Assembly: GCA_964456475.1 (NCBI GenBank)
Contig: CAYVZI010000004.1
Span: 7,604-71,603, forward strand
DNA length: 64,000 nucleotides
Source: an uncultured Candidatus Saccharibacteria bacterium
GTDB lineage: Bacteria; Patescibacteriota; Minisyncoccia; Phycocordibacterales; UBA9973
Direction: 5' to 3'
The notes under the pieces are model-generated. The model saw only the letters and a list, made by a program, of their open reading frames with translations. It was not told the DNA's origin and made no database searches. Position numbers and translations under genes: made by a program. The first letter of the stretch is position 1. Every line of letters begins with the position of its first letter. Below are positions 58,533 through 61,222 of the stretch, piece by piece.

Positions 58533-58562
58533 TTGACTTTTAGCACAGATATGTGATATAAT
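58533..58562 (+). promoter_or_regulatory. strong sigma70 promoter driving the DGR target gene (TTGACT-N18-TGaTATAAT)
   Basis: ggggtattgacttttagcacagatatgtgatataatatacaag; near-identical to 44307-44335. Confidence 0.45.
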
Positions 58563-58619
58563 ATACAAGATACATTCATTTCAAACAAGGCTGTCAAAAG
58601 CCTTTAAAAACACATTGTC

Positions 58620-59315
58620 ATGGCAGAAAAATTCAATGTCACAGGCGAACAAGATCTCAACATCGACAAACAGATGTTTGAAATCAAGAGGCAGATCCGT
58701 CAGAAAGGCGGTAGCCCAATTGACCCAAAACTTGTCGCCCTTGCATTGCAAGACGTAGTTATGGGGAAGTTCCATTCTGAAATTATGAAAGACAAGGTTG
58801 TATCGCAACCGAATTTTTCATTTTTAGAAATCAAGCAAACAGGAATTGTTATTCCCTGTCTTACCGAGCAGTTTATTCCAAACGATATATTTCGGAATAA
58901 CTCAAAAGTAAAATACTATTTGGGGGATAATTACAAAAAGTATTTGGTTGATAAAACGCAACCATTTAATACTCTACCTGAAGCCATTGTTGATAAGTCT
59001 GTCTTGAAGAAGCAGACAACCGATAAGGACATTATGACAGCAATAGGCGTGAGCGAGACCGAAAATCTGCTTTCTGAAGAGGAAATCTTGTATCGCACAA
59101 GTTACTTAACGGAACAACAGCCAAATGGTGAAAAAGGATTACTTCTTACAGATGGAAGCTGGACCATTATTGGTTACTTTCTTTGTAGTGATGGAGTGGT
59201 TCGCGTTGCGGACGTCCGCTGGCTTGGTGGCAGCTGGGACTGTTTCGTGAGCGACCTCGGCTACTGGGGCGAGGGCCTTGAGGTGCTTTCTCGCAACGGT
59301 ATCTTAAAACCTTAA
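58620..59315 (+). CDS. diversity-generating retroelement (DGR) target protein with C-terminal variable region
   Basis: 231 aa; last about 35 codons (VVRVADVRWLGGSWDCFVSDLGYWGEGLEVLSRN) are the VR copy of the TR-encoded VVRVANVNWNGDSWNCNVNDLDNWNKGNEVLSRN (AAC-codon diversification). Confidence 0.8.
   Translation: MAEKFNVTGEQDLNIDKQMFEIKRQIRQKGGSPIDPKLVALALQDVVMGKFHSEIMKDKVVSQPNFSFLEIKQTGIVIPCLTEQFIPNDIFRNNSKVKYYLGDNYKKYLVDKTQPFNTLPEAIVDKSVLKKQTTDKDIMTAIGVSETENLLSEEEILYRTSYLTEQQPNGEKGLLLTDGSWTIIGYFLCSDGVVRVADVRWLGGSWDCFVSDLGYWGEGLEVLSRNGILKP
59195..59300 (+). repeat. DGR variable region (VR)
   Basis: About 106 bp aligned to TR at offset 420 with 18 mismatches, every one at an adenine in TR; ends in conserved gaggtgctttctcg (IMH-like). 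Confidence 0.85.
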
Positions 59316-59344
59316 TTTTCTTGATACTTATAATCTTAAATACT

Positions 59345-59380
59345 TGGACTCTTTGTCCAGGTATTTTTTTTATTACAATA
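59345..59380 (+). terminator. hairpin + T-run downstream of VR (cttggac-tcttt-gtccagg tattttttt)
   Basis: 7-bp stem with G-U, then T8; DGR target genes typically carry a hairpin just 3' of VR. Confidence 0.5.
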
Positions 59381-59614
59381 AGATCATTACCATTGTAATA
59401 AAGAATGCTCACGGGTTTTCTTTCAGTGGCTCAAATCTTGTCGCTCGAGAATAACTATCGGTATGCTGATAGTTAGGGTGGGTGGTTGGATTTTTTAAAA
59501 AAGATATTTTGTTGGTATCGTCATCTAGTGGAGTACGATTCTCTCCCAAATACTATACAGCACAGTCTTTGCATATCTTCGGCTGGCAGTGACACTGATG
59601 GGTGATGGTACGAA

Positions 59615-59720
59615 AGTGGTTCGCGTTGCGAACGTCAACTGGAATGGTGACAGCTGGAACTGTAACGTGAACGACCTCGACAACTGGAACAAGGGCAATG
59701 AGGTGCTTTCTCGAAACACA
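59615..59720 (+). repeat. DGR template repeat (TR)
   Basis: Invariant, adenine-rich partner of VR; the ORF-track ORF 59589..59942 spanning it is considered non-coding. Confidence 0.85.
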
Positions 59721-59737
59721 ACACTTTCTCCTGCAAG

Positions 59738-60079
59738 TTATTTTGTGGGAGTTTTCTTTTCTAGTCCTTTTTTCCATCCGCCGAGCATTTTTCCGATTTC
59801 ATCGAGCTGTGCTGAGAGAGCCATATATTTTTCGTTCGGTACGCATTTGTTTTCCCAGGCGAGTTGCAGAAAGAATTTTACACCGTCGAGTTTGCTGATA
59901 GACATTTCTATTCGCGGAATTTTGCGTTCAACGGGAAGATAGAGCGTCGTAAAGATGCACTCAAGCAGCTCAAGAAAATATGCGTCAATCTTTCCGCCTA
60001 GGCTGTAACGGTAGGCTTTGGGAAAATCTAATAAAATCTTAAACCATAAAGCATAGGAATCTTTTGCTTTCAAAAGCAC
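59738..60079 (-). CDS. avd: Avd-like DGR accessory protein (four-helix bundle), encoded antisense between TR and RT
   Basis: 113 aa, basic; C-terminal EIGKMLGGWKKGLEKK resembles the Bordetella bAvd C-terminus (VGRILGSWIARVNRKGQ) as recalled; pattern LLDFPKAYRYSLGGKID. Confidence 0.6.
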   Translation of the reverse strand: MLLKAKDSYALWFKILLDFPKAYRYSLGGKIDAYFLELLECIFTTLYLPVERKIPRIEMSISKLDGVKFFLQLAWENKCVPNEKYMALSAQLDEIGKMLGGWKKGLEKKTPTK

Positions 60080-60092
60080 GCTCGGGCTAAGG

Positions 60093-60122
60093 TGTGTGTG
60101 TGTGTGTGTGTGTGTGTGTGTG
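60093..60122. repeat. (TG)15 dinucleotide microsatellite in the 54-bp avd/RT divergent intergenic region
   Basis: Read directly: ggtgtgtgtgtgtgtgtgtgtgtgtgtgtgtgg. Confidence 0.95.
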
Positions 60123-60133
60123 GAAGTTCCGAC

Positions 60134-61222
60134 ATGATACGATGCAGTATAGTGAAAAAGTTTGATAAACGCTACTCGAATATATTTACCTTGGAACTGC
60201 TAATGACCGCTTGGCGGGTATTTTTGAACGGCAAGCGGAAACGAGCGGATGTTATCTTGTTCCAGTCACGATTGATGAATAATATATTTTCCCTGCATCG
60301 CGATATTTCAGAAAGAACATATGTACACGGTGGATATACTGCATTCAATATTTCCGATCCCAAGCCTCGCAGTATTCATAAAGCAACCGTTCGTGACCGA
60401 TTGCTGCATCATCTGATATATCAAGAATTGTATCGGTACTTCGACTCAAAATTCATCTTTGATTCATATTCATGTAGGGTGGAAAAGGGGACACATAAGG
60501 CCATTGATCGATTTCGGGATTTTGGACGGGTTGTTTCAAAGAACAACACTCGGACATGTTTTGTTTTGAAATGCGATATTAGGAAATTCTTTGCCAATAT
60601 AGATCATGTGATCCTGAAAGAAATTTTGGCGAAGCATATTGAGGATGAGGATATTCTTCAGCTTCTTGGAACGGTGATTGATAGTTTTGATACTTCGGAA
60701 CCACCCCGTTTTGACTACAAAACACCCCTCCTTAGTAAAGGAGGGGAAAAAGCCCGAGGTTTACCACTCGGTAACCTTACGAGTCAGCTTTTGGTAAACA
60801 TTTATATGAATGAATTCGACCATTTTATGAAGCGCGAAATGAAAGCGAAGTACTATATTCGTTATGCTGACGATTTCGTTATTTTGAGCGAAGACAAGGC
60901 ATACCTAGAAAATTTGCTTCCGAAAATCGCGGAATTTTTGGAGACAAGACTCAAGCTCTCGCTTCATCCTGACAAAGTCTTCATCAAGACGCTTTCATCA
61001 GGTGTAGATTTTCTTGGTTGGATTCATTTCTCGCATCATCGGGTCTTGCGAACTGCGACAAAGCGGAGAATGTGGAAGCGTTTGGTTGAGATGGAAGGAA
61101 AAATGGAAGTAGTCCATTCATACCTAGGTTTGCTGAGTCACGGAAATGCAGTCATGCTATCAAATGATATTATTTCAACATATGCAACAGAATCATTGCA
61201 AAAAAACCATTTTCTGGTATAG
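60134..61222 (+). CDS. DGR reverse transcriptase
   Basis: RT motifs incl. GLPLGNLTSQLLVNIY (DGR-specific [IVL]GxxxSQ in place of group II QGxxxSP) and YIRYADDFVIL (YADD); about 362 aa; start set at MIRCSIV after the (TG)n tract. Confidence 0.85.
   Translation: MIRCSIVKKFDKRYSNIFTLELLMTAWRVFLNGKRKRADVILFQSRLMNNIFSLHRDISERTYVHGGYTAFNISDPKPRSIHKATVRDRLLHHLIYQELYRYFDSKFIFDSYSCRVEKGTHKAIDRFRDFGRVVSKNNTRTCFVLKCDIRKFFANIDHVILKEILAKHIEDEDILQLLGTVIDSFDTSEPPRFDYKTPLLSKGGEKARGLPLGNLTSQLLVNIYMNEFDHFMKREMKAKYYIRYADDFVILSEDKAYLENLLPKIAEFLETRLKLSLHPDKVFIKTLSSGVDFLGWIHFSHHRVLRTATKRRMWKRLVEMEGKMEVVHSYLGLLSHGNAVMLSNDIISTYATESLQKNHFLV

Follow-up and report, generated by a model that had tools for sequence, protein, structure and literature searches.

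In a published set of diversity-generating retroelements (DGRs) of candidate-phyla-radiation (CPR; Patescibacteria) bacteria, itself largely taken from Paul et al. (2017), 90% of elements have architecture B3, that is, a template repeat (TR) followed by (avd) and a reverse transcriptase (RT) gene (Wu et al., 2018; PMC5758913). These CPR B3 elements (PMC5758913; ‘DGR clade 2’, bioRxiv 10.1101/2020.04.01.020958) have the order and strands target (+), TR (+), avd (-) and RT (+), with a single adjacent target whose product lacks a recognisable family domain. The DGR of Bordetella phage BPP-1 (mtd-avd-TR-brt), the sole system characterised structurally, has a large RNA segment downstream of TR, with a 140-nt spacer and the priming site A56, which wraps the RT, whilst only 20 nt upstream of TR are needed (bioRxiv 10.1101/2023.10.23.563531). 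A different kind of variable locus is represented by the simple-sequence repeat (SSR) contingency genes of Neisseria, Haemophilus, Campylobacter and Helicobacter, in which a G/C homopolymer or a di- or tetranucleotide repeat lies within the first codons, strains that are alike in all other respects differ in the number of units, and alleles of both kinds, in frame and out of frame, are met with in nature. Here we describe an element that has to be compared with all of these, found in a 64-kb stretch (64,000 nt) of contig CAYVZI010000004.1 (GCA_964456475.1), the whole of which is called the window below and supplies the coordinates unless another locus is named. We are highly confident that the region in question is a self-contained 2.7-kb DGR cassette of CPR B3 layout, inserted between ruvA and rpsT. 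Two features that it shares with its clade, a seemingly hypermutable repeat in avd and a covariation-supported leader upstream of TR, appear to go beyond the routine. The host looks to be a Paceibacteria-like member of the CPR: the closest named relative of its RuvA (81% identical) is from Candidatus Pacebacteria and the next named match from Nomurabacteria, and in a scan of species-representative genomes the target family was confined to Patescibacteria.

The core of the element is a pair of 103-nt repeats, a variable repeat (VR) that makes up the last ~35 codons of a 231-aa target open reading frame (ORF) and a non-coding TR, which align without gaps at an offset of 420 nt (Table 1). VR and TR differ at 18 of the 103 positions, and the TR base is an adenine in 18/18 cases, just as the first-pass annotation of this DNA had claimed; with 29 adenines in 103 nt, the hypergeometric probability of all mismatches falling on TR adenines is 6.3e-13. 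The adenines are placed at codon position 1 or 2 of the VR frame in 27 of the 29 instances and, read in this frame, TR gives VVRVANVNWNGDSWNCNVNDLDNWNKGNEVLSRN, with 8 AAC, 2 AAT and 3 GAC codons and ~1.5e17 possible protein variants. The most 3′ mismatch (59294; C in VR, A in TR) is also fixed in a sister element, described below, and is therefore probably a fixed difference between the initiation of mutagenic homing (IMH) sequence and IMH* rather than a product of mutagenesis, which leaves 17 diversified sites. At the 3′ end a block identical in VR and TR (GAGGTGCTTTCTCG) gives way to divergent sequence (CAACGG in VR, AAACAC in TR), a difference likewise fixed in the sister element. An AT-rich, terminator-like 12-bp hairpin, 40 nt downstream of VR, is probably the target-gene terminator and possibly also the DGR hairpin that lies downstream of the IMH.

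The RT matches Pfam RVT_1 and its best relative in the PDB is chain 8ub7_A (a 328-aa ‘Reverse transcriptase’; E 2e-34), which we take to be the bRT of Bordetella phage BPP-1, far above the other solved structures, group II intron RTs (~4e-13) and the retron Eco8 RT (9e-4). Motif 4 of DGR-clade RTs has the form [I/L]GxxxSQ and is accompanied by YxDD, the group II and retroviral form of the motif being different; here the sequences are LGNLTSQ, read as IGNLTSQ in the first-pass annotation, and YADD, in agreement with the DGR-type RT proposed there. It is exceedingly improbable that this RT belongs instead to a group II intron, a retron or a defence system, with the VR/TR similarity an unrelated duplication. 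Its top NCBIfam model is indeed that of a group II RT/maturase, at 131 bits and thus far under the cut-off of 300; set against this are 8ub7 as by far the closest solved relative, a motif unlike the group II/retroviral form, the adjoining avd, mismatches confined to TR adenines (P = 6e-13) and the lack of any intron RNA or retron match in Rfam. Relatives of the RT are numerous, a single metagenome scan having yielded at least 542. Look-ups by exact sequence found no record of the RT (with three start choices) or of avd.

Two stretches of the RT vary in length. Residues ~181-207 (60680-60760) correspond to a variable-length insertion of 0-25 aa between motifs 3 and 4, as judged against bRT and several close relatives, and the minus strand of this region contains a GC-rich hairpin (60725-60746). 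At the C-terminus the RT extends beyond its relatives, as though the reading frame continued into the flank of the insertion site, and its last eight codons (LQKNHFLV*) overlap an rpsT promoter-like site, TTGCAA-16-TATAGT (61196-61223).

The gene between TR and RT, on the opposite strand, scores above the Pfam gathering threshold for bAvd (Table 1), so that its earlier description as Avd-like holds, and with it all parts of the complete DGR that had been proposed, target (VR), TR, antisense avd and RT, were located, every test that was run supporting the proposal. What does not hold is that an antisense avd is unusual. We surveyed the 80 best metagenome loci together with GTDB and ENA loci, detecting avd by tblastn, and avd was on the strand opposite to the RT in 77/77 cassettes with a tblastn avd match (the window included). 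In those of the 80 best RT-relative loci whose upstream flank was long enough for an avd match, avd was antisense and immediately upstream of the RT; where the flank sufficed, an adenine-only TR/VR pair was present in nearly all loci, with TR beside the avd stop codon and VR 360-820 nt (mostly ~410-590 nt) upstream of TR. The antisense avd is thus ordinary, because B3 is published as the CPR norm and is shared by the relatives. With no layout difference from the CPR B3 elements described above, and with their single adjacent target, CPR host and target without a recognisable family domain, the window element is an ordinary further member of a common, catalogued class, for which the antisense avd, compactness and housekeeping context are weak grounds for interest. 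In one related cassette, from Falkowbacteria (L008, 5091-5457, minus strand), avd aligns in two frames, either through a frameshift or through an assembly error, and RT, TR and VR appear intact despite this.

Like the BPP-1 DGR, the cassette has VR/TR differences that are specific to adenines and fall in the 3′ end of the target, together with an Avd, a VR whose IMH-like end is invariant and is followed by a hairpin, a stem-loop just downstream of TR and, if 8ub7 is bRT as we assume, a bRT-like RT. It differs in the place of avd, which is encoded between TR and RT on the opposite strand, in that the host is cellular and not a phage, and in that the target is not a tail fibre. The mechanism that we envisage is taken from established DGR biology, each of its elements having been located in this sequence. 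A non-coding RNA consisting of the ~230-nt leader, the 103-nt TR and a 3′ hairpin would be transcribed from just past the target terminator, and the RT, with Avd, would copy TR to cDNA, random bases being introduced opposite the 29 template adenines. The cDNA would then replace the 3′-terminal VR of the target gene, recoding up to 17 codons (mostly AAC); the product is a small protein without a signal peptide, and the recoded residues would belong to its C-terminal domain, of ligand-binding type.

The limits of the ~2.7-kb cassette (Table 1) were set from empty-site relatives, since these have ruvA directly beside rpsT. Such relatives were found among contigs encoding an identical rpsT protein: L100 (GCA_020049755.1) matches window 57489-58513 at 99.1% identity and 61210-61621 at 97.6%, and has ~41 nt instead of the cassette between its two flank-matching blocks, and in L097 and L102 (RuvA 90% identical) ruvA adjoins rpsT and the cassette is absent. 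As judged from these comparisons, the DGR cassette as a whole is a presence/absence polymorphism, that is, an insertion between ruvA and rpsT. Because the cassette is inserted there, the housekeeping neighbourhood that had earlier been thought noteworthy is merely the insertion site, and close relatives have the same ruvA-rpsT arrangement without a cassette. At the insertion junctions, in comparison with L100, L097 and L102, neither a target-site duplication nor terminal repeats were apparent, and a compositional anomaly of the cassette was looked for and none was found, its GC content (0.40-0.44) being as in the flanks.

Comparisons between strains indicate that the DGR has recently been active. 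A 95%-identical strain (L001; GCA_020050275.1), whose target protein falls within the same 90% cluster as that of the window, differs from the window at 15 positions of the 696-nt target gene, and 15/15 are in VR at TR-adenine positions; the ~590-nt remainder of the gene and its upstream region are unchanged, and the neighbouring end of ruvA has 10 ordinary differences. It is because the L001 target differences all sit at TR-adenine sites of VR that we consider the element recently active, and these comparisons between assemblies support recent mutagenic homing. The sister element, in a different genomic neighbourhood and with a target 67% and an RT 76% identical to those of the window, has the same layout, a VR/TR offset of 418 nt and adenine-only differences, and two of its strains (L002 and L006) have 10 VR differences. 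The value of the locus itself is that of a compact and clear-cut case in which pairs of natural strains display A-site diversification. A further difference between the two sister-element strains is a cluster of five T-to-G changes in L006 (3977-4050, corresponding to L002 7074-7139) that affects the 3′ end of TR, the hairpin and the stop codon of avd; this cluster lengthens the called avd ORF to 153 aa and is either a sequencing artefact or a real change of the RNA element.

Alignment of 12 cassettes from the target stop codon to the avd stop codon revealed, in order, the terminator hairpin, a -10 element, ~225 nt of conserved non-coding sequence, TR, a conserved CCGAAAC motif, a hairpin of the form UUUCUCC-stem-loop-stem-GGAG and a U-run. 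Folding of the leader with RNAalifold gave 41 pairs, 31 of them with compensatory change; 93.7% of cells were paired, the covariation score was 0.653 compared with at most 0.172 for slid partners, and 0/500 shuffles reached it. In the 3′ hairpin, examined in 18 loci, the eight pairs comprise four that are invariant and four that covary. A covariance model built for the 3′ half of the leader (59509-59596) matched 53 related loci once each, 43 of which had not been used in its construction, with all matches on the plus strand and at the same position upstream of the RT; in the 64-kb window its single match was 59509-59596, and there were 0 matches in four target-homologue loci without a cassette. 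Searches of Rfam at the gathering score returned two tRNAs only for the window and no family for the leader, and at E up to 10 gave only chance-level matches within 59300-60200.

TR thus probably sits in a discrete non-coding RNA of ~375 nt, for which we propose the TACAAT hexamer (Table 1) as promoter, and the hairpin at its 3′ end may serve to terminate that RNA, may correspond to the Avd-binding stem-loop that other DGRs have just downstream of TR, or may do both. Transcription of TR and RT as one RNA through the antisense avd was also considered; read-through is possible, but a conserved hairpin and U-run stand right after TR, and a separate TR RNA is therefore favoured. A fold-back priming duplex between the GAAAC at the 3′ end of TR and a downstream GUUUC was rejected, loci with GCAAC having no compensating change. 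Compared with BPP-1, the large conserved structured domain of this clade (~230 nt) lies upstream and not downstream of TR, with ~45 nt from TR to the U-run. An RNA organised in this way, unlike that of the only DGR with a solved structure, would provide a second system to compare with the Bordetella phage ribonucleoprotein.

The second clade-wide feature is a repeat at the N-terminus of avd, which in the window is (GT)15 and is found in 69 of 76 related cassettes as G7-15, (GA)n, (GT)n or (CTGG)n. Only six SSRs occur in the other 391 kb of these loci, an enrichment at the junction of ~620-fold. In repeat-free cassettes the avd ATG is nine codons upstream of the conserved body (MSTILRPPI- or MSTSISSPV-VLxK), and the repeat takes the place of those N-terminal codons, encoding PPP, LSLS, HTHT or ASQP. 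Between repeat and body lie 2-4 codons that are conserved at the protein level with third positions free; a Pro CCN codon in this gap, for example, has an entropy of 1.98 bits at its third position, compared with 0 at the first two. The groups of codons compared were picked by translation, a choice that limits the first two positions but leaves the third unconstrained. Of 66 unique SSR loci, 65 have, in some frame, an open ATG within the 15 codons that precede the repeat, compared with 46% at same-strand control positions, and this ATG is in frame with the avd body in only 23/70 loci. In the sister species, three loci from different samples (L002, L003 and L004) are identical over 2.7 kb except that they have (GT)10, (GT)12 and (GT)9, respectively; alleles of 9 and 12 units are in frame, the called Avd being of 128 and 130 aa, whereas that of 10 units is out. 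In the window the avd ATG at 60135 overlaps the RT ATG as CATG and MSELP(HT)n runs into a stop codon; one unit fewer or two more would put avd back in frame. In a separate cassette (L070, 2940-2975) the avd N-terminus has a tetranucleotide repeat, (CTGG)9, encoding ASQP repeats in frame with the upstream ATG.

On the sequence evidence, avd carries the genomic signature of a simple-repeat phase-variable gene. We lean slightly towards the reading that avd starts at the ATG upstream of a hypermutable repeat, so that gain or loss of units would shift the frame and switch DGR mutagenesis on or off; given that start, avd would be out of frame, in the OFF state, in this assembly. The likeness to the SSR contingency loci extends to repeat type, position in the first codons, variation between otherwise identical strains and the natural occurrence of both kinds of allele, with the difference that the gene concerned here belongs to a targeted mutagenesis machine, not to a surface or restriction-modification system, and that the host is a CPR bacterium. 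In the available DGR literature, a scope without Paul et al. (2017), we found no mention of a 5′ repeat in avd and no report of a phase-variable DGR, and the CPR-DGR literature within the same scope makes no mention of a leader upstream of TR or of this target family. If the reading is correct, the avd repeat would be a concrete mechanism for the poorly understood regulation of DGR activity, present as a frame-shifting repeat in ~90% of related cassettes and variable between otherwise identical strains, and it would place a stochastic, heritable and reversible ON/OFF switch atop a targeted hypermutation machine. A lineage could then fix a variant that is of use, with diversification continuing in a minority of its cells.

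Several observations weigh against such a switch, or against the larger reading of which it is part, and some of them fit other explanations. The in-frame share of one third is the random expectation, and the internal GTG 60079 or TTG 60073 could start a shorter Avd whatever the repeat number. Both would suit a working DGR in which the repeat is merely tolerated and has no regulatory effect, Avd being produced from one of these internal starts, which lie at the beginning of the avd body in the window, or by transcriptional or ribosomal slippage; the divergence of the window VR from that of L001 although avd is out of frame points the same way. We regard this as a possibility of some weight that falls well short of probable, for the sister element has GTT in place of the internal GTG and a conserved start between repeat and body is lacking in most relatives, the codons from repeat to body are conserved as protein, and an open ATG just upstream is kept in 98% of loci against 46% at control positions. 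A ~620-fold enrichment involving four motifs at one spot is, moreover, hard to explain without selection for mutability.

Also counting against a frameshift switch are two observations that it leaves unexplained or that sit uneasily with it: all repeats are G-rich on the RT-sense strand, and no RT promoter was identifiable in the window. The strand bias hints that the repeat has a second role, whether in DNA structure or as part of the promoter or leader of the RT. Taken further, the repeat might act on transcription or DNA structure rather than on frame, as a variable spacer or leader or as non-B DNA between the divergent genes (Z-DNA for GT, triplex for GA or G-runs), tuning the expression of RT, avd or both. 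To the two observations above can be added a TAnnAT hexamer directly after the run in many G-run loci, and avd and RT starts only 0-70 bp apart, so that their promoters must overlap the partner gene. This explanation is unlikely to replace the switch, since the distance from repeat to RT start ranges from ~0 to >200 nt whilst that from repeat to avd body is constant at a few codons, and since the coding signature extends right up to the repeat; a transcriptional or structural role is compatible with the frameshift model and both could act together.

It is also improbable, to a greater degree, that the DGR is simply decaying in this strain, with a frameshifted avd and a VR/TR pattern that is a relic. 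Such decay would account for an avd out of frame with the upstream ATG in a cassette that is dispensable, being absent from close relatives. The RT ORF, TR, leader RNA motifs and hairpins are nevertheless intact and match the family consensus, the target gene is unchanged between strains outside VR, and some two thirds of otherwise intact cassettes, from many environments, are out of frame, a pattern expected of reversible switching and not of independent decay.

The remaining points to be set against our interpretation concern the data. Homopolymer lengths are error-prone in short-read assemblies; repeat-length variation was seen in the sister species only, the Logan contig of the window strain (L005) ending within the repeat; activity is inferred from comparison between assemblies; and avd scores 60 bits with the NCBIfam equivalog model DivGenRetAVD (NF033474), under its cut-off of 80. 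For the frameshift switch and the leader taken jointly, namely that most DGRs of this CPR clade would be phase-variable through the avd repeat and would have an RT-organising RNA domain upstream of TR, we consider the chances evenly balanced.

The target protein had no meaningful match in Pfam, NCBIfam or PDB sequences, and a Foldseek search of its model against the PDB gave nothing at E <= 0.001. Variable proteins of the Mtd, TvpA and AvpA type display their VR on a C-type lectin/FGE-like fold. Its 40 relatives, all of 140-250 aa, share with it either ~50 residues at the N-terminus (KFNVTGEQ..IDKQM.EIKRQIRQKGGSPIDP) or else the domain at the C-terminus, and because they share only one or the other the protein is taken to be modular; two distinct VR-bearing C-terminal types follow the one N-terminal module. 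The protein lacks a hydrophobic N-terminus, which fits its first description as small and cytoplasmic-looking. The cassette carries its own strong promoter-like site ahead of this gene (Table 1), the -35 element of which is at 58533, the coordinate at which the region had originally been taken to start. Four patescibacterial loci (L007, L011, L012 and L015) encode homologues of the N-terminal module with no avd or RT match in the fetched flank (up to 4 kb); these may be orphan or remote targets, or non-diversified paralogues.

Table 1. Position of the DGR cassette and its component features in the window.
Feature	Coordinates	Strand	Remarks
DGR cassette extent	58514..61209	none	Comparison with empty sites in close relatives
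Target-gene promoter-like site, TTGACT-18-TATAAT	58533..58562	+	TG before the -10; 11/12 consensus matches
Target (variable protein) gene, 231 aa	58620..59315	+	N-terminal ~50-aa module and C-terminal ~160-aa domain ending in VR
VR	59195..59297	+	Diversified span 59211-59278; invariant IMH-like 3′ segment 59279-59297
12-bp hairpin then T-run, downstream of VR	59338..59366	+	Hairpin present with different sequences in related loci
-10-like hexamer TACAAT (proposed TR RNA promoter)	59374..59379	+	TGTATAAT or TGnTATACT in relatives; conserved block in 12-locus alignments
TR RNA structured leader	59386..59614	+	Covarying helices; motifs GUUGGU, AAUAnnAUACAGC, GGCAGUG
TR, non-coding, 29 adenines	59615..59717	+	Ungapped VR/TR comparison
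Hairpin CUCC-stem-loop-stem-GGAG then U-run	59728..59760	+	Overlaps the avd stop codon; conserved
avd body, 113 codons from GTG 60079	59738..60079	-	Pfam PF22296 bAvd, 46 bits (cut-off 40)
Probable avd N-terminal extension	60080..60135	-	ATG 60135 reads MSELP(HT)n; out of frame with the avd body here
(GT)15 simple-sequence repeat	60092..60121	none	Read as (AC)15 along the avd strand; no other long SSR in the 64-kb window
DGR RT	60134..61222	+	Start ATG 60134 or conserved GTG 60152 (MKKFDKRY); LGNLTSQ; catalytic YADD

Two observations concern the surroundings of the cassette. ARAGORN called a tRNA with a UUA anticodon at 55530-55603 (+), which was considered as a UAA suppressor and was rejected; the anticodon loop, CUUUUAA, is presumably that usual for tRNA-Lys(UUU), and both target and avd use TAA as their stop codon. 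An artefact of register probably accounts for the call. Between fpg and ruvA the window has a 161-aa ORF to which no function was assigned (57405-57890, plus strand), in place of which L097 has a 482-aa gene (792-2240), making this ORF swap a second variable spot beside the DGR insertion site.

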